Virus record (IMG/VR): IMGVR_UViG_3300011785_000002
Coordinates: 1 to 64,000 of that record
DNA length: 64,000 bases
Source: an uncultured virus (IMG/VR IMGVR_UViG_3300011785_000002)
Taxonomy: Duplodnaviria; Heunggongvirae; Uroviricota; Caudoviricetes
Reading direction: 5' to 3' (one strand)
Below are positions 2,615 through 64,000 of the stretch, in pieces (positions within the stretch are counted from its first letter, which is position 1; each line of letters opens with the position of its first letter). The notes under the pieces were generated by a model that worked only from the letters and a program-made list of their open reading frames with translations, made no database searches and was not told the origin of the DNA. Position numbers and translations under genes: made by a program.

Positions 2615-3183
2615 TGATATTGAACCTCAATAATGTCGTACATGCTGAACATCTTGTTTACATGCCCATTTGGTAAATATTCCCGACCGTTCTGGTAGTA
2701 ACTTTTCATTTTGTAGTTACTATCCCCACCGGTTTGTTCCATCTGCAGCATATAAATACCACGGTTTGTATCTTCCAAAATATCCTTGACCGTGTACCAG
2801 TGGTTGGCCCGGTTACAGACACGGATGATTTTTGGGTTTGCTTTTTTTACTAAGGATAAATCTACACACATAGCTCCATGAAGATTTCCTTTGTGTGTGA
2901 TGTGGGTTGAGTTATCCAATGTGGTGACTGCAATCACATCGTTAATACAAGGTCGTGTCTGGTTTGGTAGGAAAGAACCATCTTCCTGAACCAATAAATT
3001 GGTATGTTGAATTTCTTGCTGTTTTTTATAGAAGCGTTGAAGTTTCAACAACACCCATCCTGGCTGGGCCGGTTCAATACTATTGACCTGCATAGACAGC
3101 CCAGATCCCAGTTGCACATATTGACGTGCTGGAAAACCTGCTGCGTTTGTTTCTGAATTTTTTAACAGTGCTGATAGTGTCAT
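2611..3183 (-). CDS. hypothetical protein with two copies of a small repeated beta-rich domain (family B)
   Basis: ATGA overlaps; two segments ending EDG..NDVIAV and YYQNG..YDIIEV. Confidence 0.7.
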   Translation of the reverse strand: MTLSALLKNSETNAAGFPARQYVQLGSGLSMQVNSIEPAQPGWVLLKLQRFYKKQQEIQHTNLLVQEDGSFLPNQTRPCINDVIAVTTLDNSTHITHKGNLHGAMCVDLSLVKKANPKIIRVCNRANHWYTVKDILEDTNRGIYMLQMEQTGGDSNYKMKSYYQNGREYLPNGHVNKMFSMYDIIEVQYQ

Positions 3184-3866
3184 TCGTTTAGCCCTAATTT
3201 TTCATTTAAAAATCGTAAATATCGAGTGTCCATACTTTCTTTGAATTGGCGTACAAACATACCAATTTCTGACCTGATCAATTCTCTCAGTATCTCGTCT
3301 GTAAGATAACCTGAGATCTGGGTTCCTCCTTTTTTCTTCCACTGGATTTGTTGGTCAAAACGTTCAAGTGATACATAAGGACTCACATGAAGTTTCACAA
3401 AACCATATCCGGTTCCTGGTCTGGTTAATCTGACCTTTGGCGGTTTTTCATAATACCGTAAAAGTGTCAGGGTGAAATTGTCGGCCAACATGGTTGGGGT
3501 TGGGTGGGGAATACGCTCCAAGTCCTGGCCATTGATTGGGATAAAATACTTTCCTGTTGGATCTCCAATATTGCTGCCATGGTTTCGTTTCAGATACCAA
3601 CGGAGGAACCTGCTCGGGTTTCGATAAATCGAAATTCCATACGGAAACAGATTCATCATATATACCTTTCGCTTGGCCTCGCTCCGTGGGTGGGTCTTGG
3701 CACCTTGTCGATACGTTTCTCGGACCAGTTGGAGCCAGTACAGGGCAAAACTCAGGCTGGGGGATTGATCCCCGTTGTGAGAAAATGCCTGCCTGGCATG
3801 ATACAAGGTCTGTTCCTTGATCGAGTCAGTGCTCAGAGGTATAAGCTGTGTTGGTTTGTCGAACAT
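3180..3866 (-). CDS. hypothetical protein
   Basis: 228-aa ORF overlapping both neighbours. Confidence 0.7.
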   Translation of the reverse strand: MFDKPTQLIPLSTDSIKEQTLYHARQAFSHNGDQSPSLSFALYWLQLVRETYRQGAKTHPRSEAKRKVYMMNLFPYGISIYRNPSRFLRWYLKRNHGSNIGDPTGKYFIPINGQDLERIPHPTPTMLADNFTLTLLRYYEKPPKVRLTRPGTGYGFVKLHVSPYVSLERFDQQIQWKKKGGTQISGYLTDEILRELIRSEIGMFVRQFKESMDTRYLRFLNEKLGLNE

Positions 3867-4119
3867 TTTCTTCTCTAATTTCCCATTCTAGTTTACGTGG
3901 TAATTTAACTGTTCCATGATAAACCTGAACTAAGTTCCCGAAATCGTCCTGAACATATTTCGTGTCTGTATAGTGACTTCCACGAAAATGATGGTTATCA
4001 CACCAATACATAATATCTTTTTCAAAACCTTTAAAGATCTTGTTACTTGGGTGATAACGATCAGGATGGACAGATTGGTTAAATCTTTGGAAACCTCTAC
4101 TTTTGATAATTATTTCCAT
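3826..4119 (-). CDS. hypothetical protein
   Basis: RBS AGGAAG, packed ORF. Confidence 0.6.
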   Translation of the reverse strand: MEIIIKSRGFQRFNQSVHPDRYHPSNKIFKGFEKDIMYWCDNHHFRGSHYTDTKYVQDDFGNLVQVYHGTVKLPRKLEWEIREENVRQTNTAYTSEH

Positions 4120-4129
4120 CTTAATCTTC

Positions 4130-4480
4130 CTAACACATAGGGTTAAAATTTAAAATATCCACAACATCGTCACTGTATGGTGCTTTCAAATGAATATTTT
4201 TAGAGAAGTATTCCATGCACTCTACGAATGTTTTCCCAAATAACTGTTCAAGATGATTCCCTTTCAAAATTAGAAATCGAGAACCGTACTTGTGATTTTT
4301 ACCATAAGCACAGGTTATAACAATGGCTGTTGTTACATCCCCATAAATATGTCGATCTACATTGTTATAGCTTATGTAGTGCCAAGGGGATTGTTGATAG
4401 GCTTTATTTGGAATTAAAACAGGGAATCCACCCATAAAACGCATCTGTGATGTGTCTTTTTCCATTTTATTTTTCCTCAA
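4130..4480 (-). CDS. conserved phage hypothetical protein
   Basis: YISYN...YG..TTAIV...FLILKGNH...C..YF pattern. Confidence 0.65.
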   Translation of the reverse strand: MRKNKMEKDTSQMRFMGGFPVLIPNKAYQQSPWHYISYNNVDRHIYGDVTTAIVITCAYGKNHKYGSRFLILKGNHLEQLFGKTFVECMEYFSKNIHLKAPYSDDVVDILNFNPMC

Positions 4481-4970
4481 AATAATCTAGGTCAAATCCC
4501 AATTCAAACCAATCCACATATTTACAATCACTGATATATGCTTCCCGGTTTGAGTGCTTCACTTTAATACCTGGATGTTCAATGATTAGTCGCGCCAGTT
4601 TGGGGTTGATGCGAGTCCAGTTCTGGTCGTCTATCTTAATAGATGCCGTGTGTTTCGCATTTAACGCATTGATTCGGATTTCATACGTTGGATATATATC
4701 CATGTTTCGATTAGAAAAACGATGGTTGCTAAACTTGTGAGCATAATAGACTGCTTCAACACCATCCTCTCTTGAATCAATCGGGATCGGTTCACCTAAG
4801 TAGTCCTTGTCACATAACTTGACACGCATTTCATGCCAATCTAGTTCGTGATTATAATTCCAAACCGAAAGGGTAAGTCGTTTATCTGGGTTGAGCCGGT
4901 TGAATAACATCCACCCATCTAAGCGGCGTTTAAGGGATTTTCGAATCATTTCTTTTGTTGGGAAGGTCAT
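4467..4970 (-). CDS. hypothetical protein
   Basis: GAGGTG RBS, packed ORF. Confidence 0.7.
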   Translation of the reverse strand: MTFPTKEMIRKSLKRRLDGWMLFNRLNPDKRLTLSVWNYNHELDWHEMRVKLCDKDYLGEPIPIDSREDGVEAVYYAHKFSNHRFSNRNMDIYPTYEIRINALNAKHTASIKIDDQNWTRINPKLARLIIEHPGIKVKHSNREAYISDCKYVDWFELGFDLDYFEEK

Positions 4971-4978
4971 TTGTCACC

Positions 4979-5230
4979 TCACATATCAAGCGTCAGGATG
5001 TAATTTCCTAGACGGTTATGATCTAAATAACATTTGAGAAACAAAAACTGTTTCTCGTTCAATACATAGCACCAACGTGGGAGTTTAGAATCTATCCGAC
5101 CATATTTGGTGACTTTCAATTTTTCAAGAAACAAGATGTGCCTTTCTCGGTGCATTTTTTCCACAACGAGTTTCATACTGCTATGTTGCTTATCCAACTC
5201 GTCAGCAAGAGTTTTAGTTGTATGTCTCAT
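4979..5230 (-). CDS. Rha-like phage regulatory protein (short)
   Basis: T..LA..LDKQH.S...V and Y.LNEKQF.FL match the Rha family pattern. Confidence 0.5.
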   Translation of the reverse strand: MRHTTKTLADELDKQHSSMKLVVEKMHRERHILFLEKLKVTKYGRIDSKLPRWCYVLNEKQFLFLKCYLDHNRLGNYILTLDM

Positions 5231-5238
5231 ATTTCAAC

Positions 5239-5778
5239 TCACTCTGCACAACGGCAATGGTTGCTATAACACAGATAACTGAAATCCCCATCCTCATGGG
5301 GTTTTTCACATACAATTTCGTAAACAGTATCTACATATTTGAAGGTTTGGATCTTAACAGCTGTTACAACAAATTTATGATCTGTACTTTTATTACGTAA
5401 AACCATCCCGGGTTTTAAATCCAGATGTTTTGGAAGTACAGGATTACTTATTGTGGAATTCAGCGGTAAAACGCGGTCGTTGTGTTTCAAACAAACTGGA
5501 ACCTGCATATAAGCATAGCGACCATCAGGGAGTAAGCCTTGAATATAGCTTACGTCTCCAAAATAGTTGTCGTACATTGAATTCCAATGTTTGATTGCTT
5601 CTTCAGCTGCTGCAGCGTGGTTGTCAGCTGTGCCTAGTGAGTAGTCCCAAGGTTGGGTGTATTCAAATTCATCCGTACCTTGGTTTGAATATTGAACAAA
5701 AATAGATGTTCCTGTTTCTTCCGTAGGTGCTACTGATTCAGAAACAAAACCGTATTTGTATGTTTGATAGATAGTCAT
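5239..5778 (-). CDS. hypothetical protein
   Basis: AAGGG RBS after an AT-rich spacer. Confidence 0.7.
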   Translation of the reverse strand: MTIYQTYKYGFVSESVAPTEETGTSIFVQYSNQGTDEFEYTQPWDYSLGTADNHAAAAEEAIKHWNSMYDNYFGDVSYIQGLLPDGRYAYMQVPVCLKHNDRVLPLNSTISNPVLPKHLDLKPGMVLRNKSTDHKFVVTAVKIQTFKYVDTVYEIVCEKPHEDGDFSYLCYSNHCRCAE

Positions 5779-16152: not shown

Positions 16153-16235
16153 GTGTACGTACACGCACACGCACACACATGTGCGTATGTGTACGCACGC
16201 ATACGCGCGCATACACATACGCGCATATACGCGCG
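16153..16235. repeat. 83-bp perfectly alternating purine/pyrimidine tract (potential Z-DNA)
   Basis: GTGTACGTACACGCAC...ATATACGCGCG; alternation checked base by base. Confidence 0.95.
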
Positions 16236-16243
16236 ATGATCTT

Positions 16244-16317
16244 TGTGGATAACTTTGTGGATAACTCTGTGGATAAGTCGGAAACCCTGTGGATAACTCA
16301 GGGTTCCCTGTGGATAA
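16244..16317 (-). promoter_or_regulatory. array of five perfect DnaA boxes (TTATCCACA on the minus strand)
   Basis: TGTGGATAA at 16244, 16256, 16268, 16288 and 16309. Confidence 0.9.
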
Positions 16318-16325
16318 GTCCGGAC

Positions 16326-16341
16326 TGTTCCACGTGGAACA
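16326..16341. promoter_or_regulatory. parS: parS centromere-like site
   Basis: perfect palindrome TGTTCCACGTGGAACA matching the chromosomal ParB-binding consensus, flanked by TCCGGA on both sides. Confidence 0.85.
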
Positions 16342-58339: not shown

Positions 58340-60901
58340 CTAAGCTGCTTTTCTTTCAGTCAAATAGTTCAAAATAAGATCCCTTTCCTCACTACTCGCT
58401 CGTTCTTCCCAACGTTCTTTAGGAATACACGGAACACCTTTCTGAATCTCATGCAATTCAATTTGTCCATAAGGAGCCTGAACAGGGTCGAATGGTTGGA
58501 AGGTGTAACCGACGGCTACTGAACTATCGATTTTCACGTTCGGGAACAGGTCACTGTCCTGAATCATTTCGTTATACAGGAAATCACAAAATGCTGCAAC
58601 TTCTTGTTTTTTAACGGAAAATAATAATTCATCATGAATAAGGAGCATGAAACGTGCACTAAACCCTTGTTCCTGAGCATTATTCACAGTACGGATAATG
58701 GTTCGTTTCGCCAAAGCAGCACACATCCCTTGGATTGAGAAGTTCACAGCCTGGTTCAAAGAACGACGATGAATACGACGCATTGCTTCACGTGCAAAGC
58801 TCATGATTGCGTCTGACTCATAAGACATAAATACCTCTGTCATCAAATCCGACCATTCCTGGGTTGCTTCAAAACGTACCCGAGTGTGATGGTCACCAAG
58901 CTTGATAAACCCACGGTTTTTGACCTGTTCCTGGACACCTAAACGCCAGGATTCCGCAACTGGGAATTCACTTGTGTAGCCTTTTACAGCTTCTGCAGTA
59001 CGGTCCATATTCCAGCCCATTTCGTCAGCGATTGTACCTAACCAACCAGAATACCAATAACCGAAGTTTGCCACTTTACCCAGCACAGTACGGTAGAATT
59101 TTTTATCTGGCAATTCAGAAAATTCTTCAACGGACATACCCAAGATACCGGCAGCTGCCTTACTATGTAAATCTTTATGCGGTCGTTGCGAATAGGCTGC
59201 CAACATTGCCGGATCCTGGCTGTTTGCTGCCACACCTACCAATTCAATAGCAGACCAATCGGCTGAAACAATAACACTATCCTCGTCATCCGCCAGGAAG
59301 AAGCCACGGACGAAGACCGAATCACCACGCTTGGCCAACTGTTGTCCGTTTGGTGACGAACAACTGGTTCGACGTGTCGCCAGCATGGACGTCATTTGTG
59401 GGTGCATCAACCCTGTTTCTGGATCTACCAAACATAGGTATGGCGTGATATACAGCTTGAACGCTTGTTCTGCAGAAGCAATTTTCGCGTAAGCTTCCAA
59501 TAACGGATGCCCTTCCTCAAACTCTGCCAACATCGCTGCCCGGGCATCTTTATCCGACTGGATCTTGCCACCGGTTGCTTTGCAAGGTAAATCAAAAATC
59601 ACAAACATTACATAGCGCATGGCCATGTAGTGGTTAATTGATAACTGAGCACTTGGTTTAGCGTTCATACCTAGACGGTCTTCAATCCATGCGTTGCTTG
59701 GGGCACACTTCACCTGTGTAGCGATTGAATAGCTATCCAGATTATCTGGTGATTCAATCCACTGCTTAAATAGACGATAGTATTTTTCATGAGAAGCTGG
59801 TTTATACCATTTCTCGTACTTTAATAACTTTTCGTGCATTGGAGGCATTTCATCTGGGAAATGTTCCCGGACTGCTTTTTTAAGATCCAGCAAGGATTCC
59901 GTAAAGGACTCACGCATCGTATCACGACGCATTAAAATTTCCTTTCGGTTGACTCGCATACCGCCAATGGTGGTTTCAGCAAAGATCCGGGTGATTGGAT
60001 TCTCTGTTGATAAATAGGTGCCAATCACATCTGGATTTACTTGCTGTAAGTATTGGTAGACACGGAAGAATAAACGATAGGCCCAAATAGCATCGTCGGC
60101 ACCATATTCCAGCACTTGTGCAGCTGTTAATGCTTCCATGTCACATTCATCACCAAGCGTGTCTTTAAACTCAGCCATTTGGTAACCGAACCAGGATTTG
60201 ACTGCTTTCTTTAAACCATAACCGTATGAAATATCTTTCACGATCCCTTCATAGGAATGTGTCGCTTTCCCAGACTTTGCACAGAACTTGCCTAAGACTT
60301 CTTCCTGTTTAAAGGTGAGTTTACCTTGCTCATAATTTGAAAACTCACGTTCAATTTCCGGAATCAGTGGTTTAATTCCGCGAAGGACCGCAGCCTGTAA
60401 ATTATTCTTGTGATATTCATCTGGATTATACGCAGTCACACATAGCTGCATAGAACACAAAGTATTCGGCAACACCTGATCGTAACTACCACGATGCACA
60501 CAATATTCATAAGGTACGTTATGAATGATCAACGTATCGTTATGTCGCTTGGCTGTTTCCATCCATTTAAGCAGGTAGGAAATATCAATGGTGTTTTGTG
60601 TGTCGGCATGGCCGAAGTTAATGTAGAAAGCTTTATCAGGATGTGTTTTACCGAAGTAAAAAGATGCACCTGTAATTTTGGTGCGTTTGAAATCAAACAA
60701 TAACTTTTTACCATGGGAGAAGCCTTCATCGTCCACCTTCATCAATTTCTTGATGCCTTCGTGAGCGTCTCTTTGTGAGGTCTCTATGTCGTAACCTATT
60801 AAATTGTTTGGTGTTTTTACTTGTTCCATGAAAAAAACATCCCAATCCTGTATGTTATTTCGGTCAACAAGTATGTTCTGCACCGGTGCGTGGTAGTCCA
60901 A
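58340..60901 (-). CDS. polA: DNA polymerase family A with 3'-5' exonuclease
   Basis: DIET exo motif, DWSAIEL (A), K.ANFG..Y (B, Phe at the E. coli 762-equivalent), IHDEL (C); likely TTG start 60901 after AAGGAG. Confidence 0.93.
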   Translation of the reverse strand: MDYHAPVQNILVDRNNIQDWDVFFMEQVKTPNNLIGYDIETSQRDAHEGIKKLMKVDDEGFSHGKKLLFDFKRTKITGASFYFGKTHPDKAFYINFGHADTQNTIDISYLLKWMETAKRHNDTLIIHNVPYEYCVHRGSYDQVLPNTLCSMQLCVTAYNPDEYHKNNLQAAVLRGIKPLIPEIEREFSNYEQGKLTFKQEEVLGKFCAKSGKATHSYEGIVKDISYGYGLKKAVKSWFGYQMAEFKDTLGDECDMEALTAAQVLEYGADDAIWAYRLFFRVYQYLQQVNPDVIGTYLSTENPITRIFAETTIGGMRVNRKEILMRRDTMRESFTESLLDLKKAVREHFPDEMPPMHEKLLKYEKWYKPASHEKYYRLFKQWIESPDNLDSYSIATQVKCAPSNAWIEDRLGMNAKPSAQLSINHYMAMRYVMFVIFDLPCKATGGKIQSDKDARAAMLAEFEEGHPLLEAYAKIASAEQAFKLYITPYLCLVDPETGLMHPQMTSMLATRRTSCSSPNGQQLAKRGDSVFVRGFFLADDEDSVIVSADWSAIELVGVAANSQDPAMLAAYSQRPHKDLHSKAAAGILGMSVEEFSELPDKKFYRTVLGKVANFGYWYSGWLGTIADEMGWNMDRTAEAVKGYTSEFPVAESWRLGVQEQVKNRGFIKLGDHHTRVRFEATQEWSDLMTEVFMSYESDAIMSFAREAMRRIHRRSLNQAVNFSIQGMCAALAKRTIIRTVNNAQEQGFSARFMLLIHDELLFSVKKQEVAAFCDFLYNEMIQDSDLFPNVKIDSSVAVGYTFQPFDPVQAPYGQIELHEIQKGVPCIPKERWEERASSEERDLILNYLTERKAA

Positions 60902-60972
60902 TTCATAACTCCTTAAGTTATTTTTGGTATAGAAAAAGGACAGTAGCAATTGCCCTGTCCGTTGTTACATCT

Positions 60973-61002
60973 AAGATAGTTCATTTGTCACTTGAAAGTC
61001 AA
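60973..61002 (-). promoter_or_regulatory. sigma70-type promoter for polA
   Basis: TTGACT-18 bp-TATCTT. Confidence 0.55.
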
Positions 61003-61003
61003 C

Positions 61004-61026
61004 AAAAAACCCAACTGGAATTGGGT
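61004..61026 (-). terminator. intrinsic terminator
   Basis: ACCCAA-..-TTGGGT followed by a T run. Confidence 0.75.
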
Positions 61027-61325
61027 CGTTTGTCGTTTCTTTCAGTTTTCTGGAAAACTATCCAGTTTTGATTAAGCAGTGAGAATTACTTAATCACAAT
61101 TAAGGTCCGTTTTGCTGTCTCCACATTAGCAAAATAAAGGATGATCCAGTCCCGGACGATTAATTAAACCTAACATATTTTACTTTTAAAGTTAAACAAC
61201 ACACCATCGAAGAAGCTTAACTGGTCTTACCTGACTCTATGCGATGACCCATGTTTTTCTCGCGCTTTTTGGATCTAAGGAGAAGCGAGAAGTAAGACCT
61301 TTTAGATATGAATGGCTAACATCCT
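61004..61325 (-). ncRNA. candidate ~320-nt structured ncRNA
   Basis: own promoter (TTGATA-17-TAGATT, 61360-61332) and terminator; only very short ORFs; multiple hairpins. Confidence 0.55.
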
Positions 61326-61340
61326 GAGAGTAATCTACTA

Positions 61341-61763
61341 TTATTCTTTAAGTTTATCAATCTCTTTGTTCATACTTTCACGGATTTCATCCAGGTATTT
61401 TTGGTGTTCTTCAAAATCAAAACCCACACCTTCCAAATGCTGCCAAACATTTTCAGCGTGAGTTTTGTAGTGTTGGGCTTTTTCTAAACCTTCCGATGGT
61501 ACTTTACCCATCATGGCCAACATAAAAATATCGCTTGCAAACAGGCTTTCTTCTAACACATCAACTGAAGACATATTTATCTGTCCGTCCAGGATCACTT
61601 CCATGCTTTCTATTTTGGCTTGATTGTTTGGTAGCAAACCCATTGTTGCAGTAAACATAGTCAGAACCGGTTGGGTTCCTTGCTGTTTGAAAAGCATATT
61701 GGTTTGCAGAATATTCATTGCACGTTCTGCAGCTGACATAAGCGGTGCTAGTGTTTTAGCCAT
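61341..61763 (-). CDS. hypothetical protein
   Basis: AAGGA RBS, 140 aa. Confidence 0.7.
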   Translation of the reverse strand: MAKTLAPLMSAAERAMNILQTNMLFKQQGTQPVLTMFTATMGLLPNNQAKIESMEVILDGQINMSSVDVLEESLFASDIFMLAMMGKVPSEGLEKAQHYKTHAENVWQHLEGVGFDFEEHQKYLDEIRESMNKEIDKLKE

Positions 61764-61784
61764 TGGTAGGTTCCTTGTGTTATG

Positions 61785-61810
61785 AAAAACCCCAGACAGT
61801 GTCCGGGGTT
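61785..61810 (-). terminator. terminator after the tRNA cluster
   Basis: AACCCCGGACA-..-TGTCTGGGGTT followed by a T run. Confidence 0.7.
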
Positions 61811-61833
61811 GGGTTTATTTTCGTGGAATAAAC

Positions 61834-61909
61834 TGGTGCTCAAAGTAGGACTCAAACCTACGACCTGATGCTTACAAGGCAACTGCTCTATCAACTGAGC
61901 TATTCGAGC
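61834..61909 (-). tRNA. tRNA-Thr(UGU)
   Basis: 76-nt cloverleaf, anticodon loop CTTGTAA, encoded CCA. Confidence 0.92.
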
Positions 61910-61914
61910 TAAAA

Positions 61915-61990
61915 TGGCTGCCTCAACACGGTTCGAACGTGTGACCAACGGATTAACAGTCCGGTGCTCTACCAACTGAGCTATGAAGCA
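61915..61990 (-). tRNA. tRNA-Asn(GUU)
   Basis: 76-nt cloverleaf, loop CTGTTAA, TTCGAA T-loop, encoded CCA. Confidence 0.95.
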
Positions 61991-62000
61991 ATAAACTTTG

Positions 62001-62207
62001 ATTTACTTAAAGGTACGTTCTCCGATTGGTTGACTAGACCAGTCTAGGTTTTCGCAACAGTGATAATTAGTCACCCTTACTTTGGGTACAAACCTTTGAA
62101 AATGCCCTCATTCAGTAGTGCTTACTTCCTAGCTTCATTGGGAGATTAATCCCTCCACTATTACCTACACACCTTCTGGTTCGTCGAGAACGCACCTTTA
62201 AGTAAAT
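62001..62207 (-). ncRNA. candidate ncRNA closed by a 22-bp terminal stem
   Basis: 62001-62022 pairs with 62186-62207; the single mismatch is G.U only on the minus strand. Confidence 0.65.
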
Positions 62208-62221
62208 TGGACATAGAATGT

Positions 62222-62460
62222 GATTAAGATTCCTTCTGGATCCACTACAGTATCCAAAGCCTTGTCCAAGGCTAGTCAGCGGAAGTTAATGTAGTTGCTT
62301 ACATTACCTGGGTCTGTGTCCGTGACAGTGATTAAGTCACCAGCTACCTTTTAACGTCAATTAGGCTACCGACAGGATTTCATTTTAGGCTACTTTACTG
62401 CTTTATTAGTACAGTATTCAGCTCCTAAAACTACTCAGCCTTTTTAAGAAGAACTTAATC
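62222..62460 (-). ncRNA. candidate multi-hairpin ncRNA
   Basis: closing stem GATTAAG..CTTCT/AGAAG..CTTAATC with several internal hairpins; no substantial ORF. Confidence 0.6.
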
Positions 62461-62569
62461 TTCTTAGTCCAACAAGGATTGACTTAGTCTGACGTAAGAT
62501 TGAAACCTTGCTGGCTAAGAAAATCAAAACACCAACCTTGCGGTTAGTGCTTCGTTCTCTATGTGGTTG

Positions 62570-62599
62570 ACTATACAGATGTTCATGTGATCTCGTCAA
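62570..62599 (-). promoter_or_regulatory. sigma70-type promoter for the RNA cluster
   Basis: TTGACG-18 bp-TATAGT. Confidence 0.7.
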
Positions 62600-62731
62600 C
62601 ATCATTTTTCTGGTCTTTTTTACGCTTATGTTTGTCTATAAGACGAATACCTATGTAAAACAAAGCCTTAACTATATCTACAGCAAGTTCTCGTTTGTTC
62701 ATTTTTTATCCTTCCTATTTTTCTGTAACAA

Positions 62732-63457
62732 TCAACGACCTTTAAAGTAGCGTACTGCTGCAGCCAATTTACCATGATAGTCGTTTTTAGCGTAGAGTTT
62801 ACCATTGTACATCTGGGCAAAAGGACGACAAGCATCTGGTTTTTCAGATAAAGCCAGGAATTTAGACTGCCCTCGGTTCATTTCAATAAATGATACTAAT
62901 AAATCATACTGGGCTTTTTCCGTGTGCGTACATGCGTAAAGCATTTCCCATGGGGTTTTGTATCCCATCTGAATATAATATTCACCCATTACCTGGAAGG
63001 CACCCATAGACACGGCCATAAAAGCAGCACGTGGGTCATACTGACAAGCATGGATTAATTTATCGTAACTGTCATTGACGCCATTATTATCTGCGTCTGT
63101 TGTGTAATTTCCCCATGATGGGTAATTAAAGAAAGTAGACTTCGGTGCTGACACGTCATCATTATGTGCCCAGAACTTGTGGCGTTCATACAGGATTTTA
63201 GGCATACCATCATTGAACCAGCCTGAGCCATTGGCCTCTACCTTGGCCACGGCCTTGATCCGGACAGTGTCTGTGTCACCTAAACGACGTGCTAGTTGGA
63301 ATTTTTCTGATTCAGAAATGGCTGGAGCTTTCTTATTTCGGAAGCAAGCTAAGATCGCGTCTTTCGAACCGCGGCCGATGATTCCATCAATGGCTCCAAA
63401 ATAGAATCCTTTATCCTTCAGGAATTGTTGAAATTCCTTGCGCGTTTTTACAGACAT
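62732..63457 (-). CDS. endolysin: peptidoglycan-binding domain plus N-acetylmuramidase (DUF3380-like)
   Basis: Q..L...G.Y.G.IDG..G..S; VE..G.G...PKIL.ERH.F, S.G.FQ.MG, FA..YNG. Confidence 0.88.
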   Translation of the reverse strand: MSVKTRKEFQQFLKDKGFYFGAIDGIIGRGSKDAILACFRNKKAPAISESEKFQLARRLGDTDTVRIKAVAKVEANGSGWFNDGMPKILYERHKFWAHNDDVSAPKSTFFNYPSWGNYTTDADNNGVNDSYDKLIHACQYDPRAAFMAVSMGAFQVMGEYYIQMGYKTPWEMLYACTHTEKAQYDLLVSFIEMNRGQSKFLALSEKPDACRPFAQMYNGKLYAKNDYHGKLAAAVRYFKGR

Positions 63458-63514
63458 AAAATAACCCTCAGAATACTGAGGGTTATTCTACATCATTTGA
63501 AGTATCACTTGAAC

Positions 63515-63778
63515 TTAATGCCTATTTTTTATCTGTTGGCACTTTTTAAGATAGGGAAAATAATCTTTGTACATCCAGAATAAAGCCCCGATCACAATAA
63601 GCAAAGCTGGAATATGAATTTGACGCATACCCAGCCCAGAAGCAATTAAGAACAAAATAAGGTACTTCTGGCTTGTAATAAAAACAAAGATGTTTCTTCC
63701 CCGATTAAAGAAATATAGTCCTGTTAAGCTAAACAAAGCCAGAAGTGCCCAGACGATTGTAAAATAAGTAACTGGCAT
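63515..63778 (-). CDS. membrane protein, possible holin
   Basis: 2-3 hydrophobic helices, basic C-terminus, directly upstream of the endolysin. Confidence 0.5.
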   Translation of the reverse strand: MPVTYFTIVWALLALFSLTGLYFFNRGRNIFVFITSQKYLILFLIASGLGMRQIHIPALLIVIGALFWMYKDYFPYLKKCQQIKNRH

Positions 63779-63780
63779 GA

Positions 63781-63975
63781 TTAGTCACCACTTTTTGGTA
63801 TATTCATAGCTTTAGTGTACTCTTTGAACTTTGCTCGTAAGTTGAGAATTGTTACAGGTAGTACAATAGATGCTACGGTAATCCAGATGGGGTTAAGGAG
63901 TGTTAGGCTTTTATCTTTGTAAAGACAGTAAACAAAAGCTAAAACTCCACCTAATAACGCAGTTACGAACTTCAC
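63781..63975 (-). CDS. small membrane protein
   Basis: two hydrophobic helices in the lysis region. Confidence 0.55.
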   Translation of the reverse strand: MKFVTALLGGVLAFVYCLYKDKSLTLLNPIWITVASIVLPVTILNLRAKFKEYTKAMNIPKSGD

Positions 63976-64000
63976 ACTGGAAGGTAGATCTTTCTCACTA

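Follow-up and report, generated by a model that had tools for sequence, protein, structure and literature searches.

Positions 61330-61004 (minus strand) of the window analysed here, a 64,000-nt stretch that makes up most of the 76.3-kb genome (GC 41%) of an uncultured phage, encode, as comparison with related phages supports well, a structured non-coding RNA about 320 nt long, which would constitute a new family of a known kind. Being non-coding and yet keeping its fold across related phages, the element is very likely an undescribed RNA gene, and we have little doubt that it specifies a genuine structured RNA. Within the material searched, the family appears to be confined to one clade of lytic siphophages, comprising five Acinetobacter baumannii phages and uncultured relatives. 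Phage-encoded structured RNAs are few and mostly without known function, and the comparative support for this one is unusually clean.

The phages that carry the element include cultivable broad-host-range A. baumannii phages studied for therapy. As the element is present in cultivable phages, deletion, mutation and direct probing are possible. A term search in publications on these phages gave no mention of a small or non-coding RNA.

Locus, boundaries and coding potential

The element lies on the minus strand within the replication and early region of the genome. Read along that strand, the order is endolysin, a small ORF, roughly 530 nt free of genes, tRNA-Asn and tRNA-Thr, a 140-aa ORF, the element, and the gene for a family A DNA polymerase (polA). 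The features of the locus, with the basis of each assignment, are as follows.

62732-63457, minus strand: endolysin (from the gene order upstream of the element)
61915-61990: tRNA-Asn (ARAGORN; Rfam scan of the whole window)
61834-61909: tRNA-Thr (ARAGORN; Rfam scan of the whole window)
61341..61763, minus strand: 140-aa ORF upstream of the element, context (ORF list)
61332..61360, minus strand: promoter-like site, -35 at 61360-61355 and -10 at 61337-61332 with a 17-nt spacer, 9/12 consensus matches (scan)
61004..61330, minus strand: conserved non-coding element of about 320 nt, 289-327 nt in relatives (homologous loci; no ORF)
61002..61027, minus strand: intrinsic terminator, stem 61027-61008 and T run to about 61002 (terminator scan)
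60973..61002, minus strand: promoter-like site for the polA operon, context, outside the RNA (promoter scan)
60937..60961, minus strand: conserved hairpin of the leader with a T run behind it, immediately 5' of the polA ribosome-binding site, context (scan and relatives)
58340..60907, minus strand: polA, 855 aa from the ATG at 60907, context (protein matches)

The earlier note on this DNA had described a unit that holds only very short ORFs, and this was borne out. On the minus strand, 60950-61340 contains no ORF of at least 25 aa, and the longest ATG-started sense frame within the window element is 16 aa; across eight homologues, the longest such frames range from 5 to 33 aa and are not conserved. 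In the five deposited phage genomes, the corresponding stretch is either unannotated or overlaid by short, low-scoring ORFs that we regard as spurious.

Comparison with Rfam by Infernal, which the earlier note had put forward as a check, gave no family for the region of the element. With Rfam 15, the whole window yielded two tRNAs only, while a search of 60800-61500 returned no match even at E<=10, and ARAGORN called neither a tRNA nor a tmRNA within the element. Four homologous loci searched at E<=1 gave tRNAs only, plus chance-level matches elsewhere that fell far under the thresholds. The statement that this is not a recognised RNA such as tmRNA thus agrees with the searches, and the proposal of an undescribed phage RNA is now well supported by the lack of an Rfam match or conserved ORF together with the conservation of the element and its covarying helices.

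The T-tailed hairpin that had been said to close the unit ahead of the polA promoter is present at 61027-61008, and beyond it, at 61002-60973, comes another promoter-like pair. The surrounding interval 60000-64000 is rich in terminator-like sites (11 vs 2.7 +/- 1.7 expected), and the scan places such sites at the equivalent position in three relatives (L009, L010 and L026). In L007 the scan gives the opposite strand only, and the terminator of L001 is absent from the scan list; a hairpin and T run are discernible by eye in both.

The own promoter proposed for the unit has modest support. The hexamer pair is located in the window where it had been placed, the -35 hexamer lying within the 140-aa ORF and the -10 hexamer directly after the stop codon of that ORF, and a promoter-like site at threshold at the 5' end of the element occurs in two of the six lineages checked (the window and L009). 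Nothing reaches the threshold at that place in the other four: the scan detected no such site at the 5' end in L007, L010 or L001, and the sole site listed for L026 lies about 40 nt further upstream. By eye only, and below the scan threshold, 8/12 matches can be read at equal distance in L007 and the Acinetobacter phages. Promoter-like sites in 60000-64000 are not above chance (12 vs 9.8 +/- 2.6 in shuffles). Because the promoter is patchy across the lineages, the element may either start on its own or be cut from a longer transcript.

RNA data consist of assembled contigs from four RNA or possibly-RNA runs, of 24 runs listed, and such contigs show neither transcript ends nor levels. In one run (X15), a high-depth contig covers 61109-61308 and a contig of depth 31 covers 61299-61553; since the former differs at 9 of 200 places and has an unlike 5' end, the two derive from different strains, and their depths are therefore not comparable. 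A second run (X16) contributes a contig of depth about 2 over 60924-61219, which spans the terminator.

Occurrence among related phages

The closest deposited polymerases are those of five A. baumannii phages (TCUP2199, fJoAci01, EAb13, fJoAci04 and Mystique), at 69-72% identity. Among metagenomic and viral contigs, identity is 98% for L006, 77% for L007, 71% for L008, and 70% for L009, L010 and L026, and a more distant group of polymerases follows at 33-41%. An element of 289-327 nt is found at the equivalent place in every one of the 12 loci with a polymerase identity of about 70% or more, those of the five A. baumannii phage isolates among them. Each of these loci has a gene-free stretch upstream of polA, and the element always lies directly 5' of the conserved leader of the polA operon.

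The neighbouring protein is conserved less well. In the Acinetobacter phages, the upstream ORFs are unrelated to the 140-aa ORF of the window, and yet the element follows immediately upon the stop codon; for L009 and L026, the ORFs at this place show only faint similarity to that of the window (25-29% identity, E 0.015 and 0.001). We conclude from these unrelated or faintly similar ORFs that the RNA is better conserved than the adjacent protein.

Homologues were also sought with two covariance models of the 5' domain: R1, based on just two sequences (the window and L006) and the proposed structure, and R2, built from nine aligned sequences. The R1 search identified seven further homologues (L007, L010, L009, L004, L026, L005 and L008; E 9e-13 to 2e-3), missed L001-L003, and gave one spurious match at E 2.9. 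With R2, every one of the 12 homologues was obtained, at E 1e-14 to 3e-29, alongside a single spurious match at E 0.94. Each complete phage record searched contains a single copy.

Outside this clade, R2 had no match in 19 loci of the more distant polymerase relatives, nor was an element detected with it in the Acinetobacter marinus genome or in 151 genomes of its family. In JWF, KB12-38, Seuss and Lumi, whose polymerases are about 40% identical, the genes upstream of polA are tightly packed and leave no gap. A blastn search of the phage collection with the window element gave no match. Polymerase pattern scans added only L026 among viral contigs and nothing among genome contigs, and a pattern for the 5' motif returned nothing beyond three viral contigs already known. 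A pattern for the leader hairpin proved too generic, matching at least 114 viral and at least 120 genomic stretches; R2, applied to 80 of the viral loci so obtained, found one element, on the same contig as L010. The family is accordingly small, comprising six lineages.

Secondary structure of the 5' domain

When the homologues are compared side by side, four helices (P1-P4) keep constant positions while their sequences differ by lineage. P1 is a long-range helix that closes the P2-P3 arm and the P4 arm into a three-way junction. The elements of the fold are as follows.

61167..61328, minus strand: 5' domain, three-way junction, the portion modelled by R1 and R2 (covariance models, covariation)
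61306..61310, minus strand: P1 5' strand, pairs with 61174-61178 (RNAalifold, covariation)
61174..61178, minus strand: P1 3' strand (RNAalifold, covariation)
61292..61299, minus strand: P2 5' strand, pairs with 61223-61230 (8/8 pairs changed on both sides)
61223..61230, minus strand: P2 3' strand (covariation)
61285..61291, minus strand: P3 5' strand, pairs with 61257-61263 (6/7 pairs changed on both sides; stem sequence lineage-specific)
61257..61263, minus strand: P3 3' strand (covariation)
61264..61284, minus strand: P3 loop, 21 nt, with an invariant CUCCUU core and an A-rich 3' part; of the single-stranded segments, the one conserved best (invariant columns, 12 homologues)
61215..61222, minus strand: P4 5' strand, pairs with 61190-61197 (7/8 pairs changed on both sides)
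61190..61197, minus strand: P4 3' strand (covariation; 9/9 single-sequence folds)
61302..61319, minus strand: candidate 4-bp pseudoknot or alternative 5' hairpin, 61316-61319 with 61302-61305 (weak)
61028..61166, minus strand: 3' domain, made up of an extended irregular arm, two more hairpins and a single-stranded spacer rich in A (folds; sequence varies by lineage)

In the nine-sequence alignment, 98.7% of 225 helix cells are paired, vs 66.2 +/- 2.5% in shuffles (none of 500 reaches the observed value) and 24.6-51.0% in controls in which the partner strand was slid. Compensatory changes affecting both sides were found in 25 of 28 pairs; as this alignment was fitted to the model, the covariation count leans towards the proposed structure. 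Unfitted analyses were therefore set beside it. From a plain MAFFT alignment of 11 sequences, in which the inner stems were misaligned, RNAalifold recovered P1 unaided, with five of its six pairs compensatory. Applied to three MAFFT lineage subsets, it recovered P1 in all three and P2 in two, P4 clearly in one and P3 only partially. Single-sequence minimum-energy folds contained P1 in seven of nine sequences, P3 in seven (with one more partial) and P4 in all nine.

The collection of homologues and test for covariation that had been suggested earlier thus yielded 12 homologues and compensatory changes above both types of control. The five hairpins named in the earlier note are all present in the window, and three of them (P2, P3 and P4) are backed by covariation; the long-range closing helix P1, however, had been overlooked.

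G-U cells outnumber A-C cells 11 to 1, which points to a structure formed on the gene strand and hence in RNA. Folding energy does not set the element apart, and the support for its structure comes from comparison across relatives: for the whole element the minimum free energy has a z-score of -1.21, 10 of 100 shuffles folding equally well, and the halves differ (5' half z -0.68, 3' half z -2.28).

Conserved unpaired positions comprise the P3 loop, the 5' end of the element and two joining strands, one after P1 and one ahead of its 3' side. An outer extension of P1 (61314-61317 with 61167-61170) is predicted in the lineage of the window. For the candidate pseudoknot, all 36 cells are paired and one of the four pairs covaries (U-A in six sequences, G-C in three). 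In each lineage, the 3' half forms one long arm plus one or two hairpins, after which come an A-rich spacer and the terminator.

The P3 loop and candidate modes of action

The P3 loop is 17-21 nt long across the homologues. Its CUCCUU core is invariant in all 12, while the stem that closes it is different in each lineage, and the core is followed by a partly conserved stretch and then an A-rich tail. CUCCUU is the complement of the strong Shine-Dalgarno sequence AAGGAG, and the core overlaps the anti-Shine-Dalgarno 3' end of 16S rRNA. By eye, identity of the loop with the rRNA end reaches eight to nine bases in L007 and the Acinetobacter phages; unlike the rRNA, however, three of the six lineages do not retain the first C of the rRNA core pentamer, and the motif is located in a hairpin loop rather than at a free 3' end. 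A conserved loop of this kind on a junction scaffold provides a concrete, testable handle on how the RNA may act.

We propose that the RNA would be made as a discrete species, either initiated at the promoter-like site located where the upstream ORF ends or cut out of a read-through transcript, and that it may act in trans through its conserved unpaired segments. In this scheme, the exposed P3 loop would base-pair with the Shine-Dalgarno regions of mRNAs and lower their translation. That the element acts in trans, with this loop pairing to ribosome-binding sites, is the reading we prefer among those considered, though only tentatively. It is favoured by a seed, in the predicted loop, that is complementary to one ribosome-binding site, in the window only:

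starts 7353, minus strand: candidate target, 157-aa ORF (loop-complement scan of the genome)

In the window, the loop and two bases of the stem form a perfect 14-nt complement over the Shine-Dalgarno sequence of this ORF, and no other non-self duplex in the genome scores as well as the one that results (-26.9 kcal/mol vs a mean of -7.9, sd 3.1). By a rough hand estimate, the chance of such a match at one of the strong ribosome-binding sites of the genome is about one in a thousand. In the closest relative, L006, the loop differs by one base within the 14-nt complementary stretch. Against the proposed pairing, it is neither conserved nor co-varying in the relatives examined: a complement of at least 12 nt at a ribosome-binding site was found in none of five records (TCUP2199, EAb13 and three uncultured relatives). 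The target ORF itself matches nothing in Pfam, PHROG or NCBIfam, has no counterpart in TCUP2199, and has one weak counterpart (E 0.005) in one relative. A similarly improbable match occurs in TCUP2199, where a second copy of the loop motif lies inside a coding region; such post-hoc matches can therefore be due to chance.

Further partners for the loop were sought within the element and in the host. By eye, we saw neither a conserved intramolecular partner for the loop nor a conserved pairing of the element with the polA leader hairpin. A BLAST search of 41 Acinetobacter genomes with the P3 region gave chance-level matches only (E 0.09-3.5). A recurrent 17/19 match in Acinetobacter genomes was considered as a partner and rejected, since it is a same-sense similarity that apparently lies in a host coding region and not in a tRNA.

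Typical base-pairing sRNAs are simpler than a 160-nt junction whose joining strands are conserved, and a fold of this kind would serve a protein or ligand as partner just as well. The RNA might bind a protein or another partner that is not an mRNA, serving as a sponge, decoy or scaffold that titrates, for example, a host RNA-binding protein or a defence nuclease, although we consider this doubtful. Stems that covary, together with unpaired segments that are strictly conserved and a junction of several helices, are what protein-binding RNAs usually show, and both the lack of conservation of the candidate mRNA target and the restriction of loop invariance to six bases and an A-rich tail would fit such a partner. 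However, the element contains no direct repeats that could correspond to the repeated binding motifs of known sponges, and the neighbouring 140-aa ORF, which has no match in Pfam, PHROG, NCBIfam or solved structures, is swapped for unrelated ORFs in the Acinetobacter phages.

It is unlikely, in our view, that the element is instead a cis-acting part of a longer transcript, be it a structured 3' UTR of the upstream mRNA (a stabiliser or processing mark) or a sensor or attenuator leader of the polA operon. The promoter that is weak or sub-threshold in four of six lineages, the invariable position directly 5' of the polA-operon leader (12/12 loci) and the low-depth contig that spans the terminator are all compatible with such a role. 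Furthermore, the 140-aa ORF starts about 12 nt after a terminator-like hairpin recognised by eye, so read-through transcription would be common in the region. Yet the element is kept although the upstream gene differs between lineages, and some 150 nt of variable sequence separate the junction from the terminator, unlike the expression platforms of riboswitches. Promoter-like sites between the terminator and the leader, one detected by the scan in the window and others seen by eye in relatives, likewise count against a cis-acting role.

Endoribonuclease toxins specific for the anti-Shine-Dalgarno sequence exist. The loop, presented on a rigid three-way junction, might mimic the anti-Shine-Dalgarno end and so divert a ribosome-disabling defence ribonuclease, or compete with ribosomes for strong Shine-Dalgarno sites and thereby re-programme translation in the infected cell; we regard this as improbable. 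In either form, such a mimic would be the first of its class among counter-defence or takeover RNAs of phages. Should the RNA tune one phage gene only, it would add modestly to the known phage sRNAs, whereas a decoy or a re-programmer of translation would represent a new mechanism.

Still less credible is a function of the hairpins in DNA, such as a replication origin or single-strand initiation site by the polymerase gene. The element does adjoin replication genes, and its GC content is slightly low (0.34-0.40 vs 0.41 for the genome). However, the excess of G-U over A-C cells singles out the transcribed strand, the element ends in a canonical terminator and contains neither iterons nor direct repeats, and five direct repeats, which we take to resemble DnaA boxes, are clustered elsewhere, at 16244-16320.

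A decayed tRNA gene or tRNA array, suggested by the two tRNA genes 500-650 nt upstream and by a resemblance of the loop, noted by eye in three lineages, to tRNA positions 3-15 (acceptor strand into D arm), is effectively refuted, as the searches at E<=10 and by ARAGORN gave no tRNA in the region, the tRNA-like positions outside the six-base core are not conserved, and a motif held in the loop of a covarying hairpin does not have tRNA geometry.

With respect to known systems, the proposed trans-acting RNA can be compared to bacterial and phage sRNA genes of the DapZ and MicL type, whose start lies inside a preceding coding region or where that region ends, and which use the same terminator as it does. 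As in these, a promoter-like site extends over the last part of the preceding ORF, the terminator follows an A-rich single-stranded stretch, and a conserved, exposed loop has a sequence that complements ribosome-binding sites; in contrast to them, the element, at about 320 nt, is two to three times longer, has a conserved three-way junction, and lacks a conserved target. GOLLD and ROOL are large, ornate phage-associated RNAs without known function that are often found near tRNA genes. The element resembles them in being phage-borne, near tRNA genes, multi-helical and strongly covarying, but it is about half their size or less, its helices are arranged otherwise, and the Rfam search at E<=10, which included both families, gave no match. 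Species 1 and 2 of phage T4 (rnaC and rnaD) are small stable RNAs encoded in a tRNA cluster and cut from a tRNA precursor. Likened by description alone, the element shares with them a stable-RNA-like gene, the early region of a lytic phage and the neighbourhood of tRNA genes, whereas the T4 RNAs are shorter and the element is separated from the tRNAs by the 140-aa ORF and a terminator-like hairpin.

Leader hairpin of the polA operon

Downstream of the predicted structured RNA element, the leader of the DNA polymerase gene carries a hairpin that recurs at the equivalent position in all 11 related polA loci.

60937-60961, - strand: polA leader hairpin followed by a T run

In 12 of 12 related loci, counting that of the window, the hairpin lies 20-30 nt 5' of the ribosome-binding site that comes first in the polA operon. 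An additional ORF separates it from polA in three uncultured relatives (L006, L009 and L010), that of L009 encoding 125 aa. The six-base stem is almost invariant and the loop variable; a variant stem is found in L026, another uncultured relative. As the stem shows no covariation among the 12 loci, the comparison suggests that the hairpin may serve in sequence-specific recognition, as an attenuator or as a 5' stabiliser.

tRNA genes and non-coding sequence upstream of the element

The set of tRNA genes 5' of the element differs among the lineages compared: TCUP2199 has none, L006 and L010 carry only tRNA-Asn, the window and L009 have Asn and Thr, and L026 has Asn, Met and Arg. Reading L006 by eye, we noted an apparent remnant of the 3' part of tRNA-Thr approximately 190 nt after tRNA-Asn, which gives the impression of an interrupted tRNA-Thr gene in this relative.

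~61776-61803, - strand: GC-rich hairpin and T run, directly after tRNA-Thr
61991-62525, - strand: ORF-free stretch (~530 nt) between a terminator-like hairpin and tRNA-Asn
62554-62525, - strand: terminator-like hairpin bounding this stretch
62599-62570, - strand: promoter-like site, just before the terminator-like hairpin

The GC-rich hairpin, a by-eye reading that is not among the terminator-like sites from the scan, leaves a gap of only ~12 nt to the start codon region of the 140-aa ORF. Expression of this ORF would therefore have to depend on read-through or on a processed transcript. The ORF-free stretch, for which an Rfam search (E<=1) gave zero matches, is possibly another RNA element; in the Acinetobacter relatives, ~1.36 kb after tRNA-Asn is without annotation.

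Records of two Acinetobacter phages

The annotation of the Mystique record splits the polymerase gene (locus 2995-5588) into four or five pieces, possibly frameshifts due to sequencing errors; the polymerase of its relatives is a single 859-aa ORF. At ~40027 (+) in the TCUP2199 record, the motif of the element's P3 hairpin loop occurs a second time, as an exact copy of its 15-16-nt consensus form. This copy falls within a coding region, is lacking in EAb13, and was treated as a chance occurrence.

DnaA-box-like repeats

16180-16330, + strand: DnaA-box-like repeat region, with five direct repeats (unit of 9-10 nt) at ~16244-16320

The five copies, whose unit resembles a DnaA box, lie in an ORF-free gap and are preceded by CG/CA-rich repeats in which purines and pyrimidines alternate over ~55 nt. 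We regard the region as a candidate for a replication origin or for a site that titrates DnaA.
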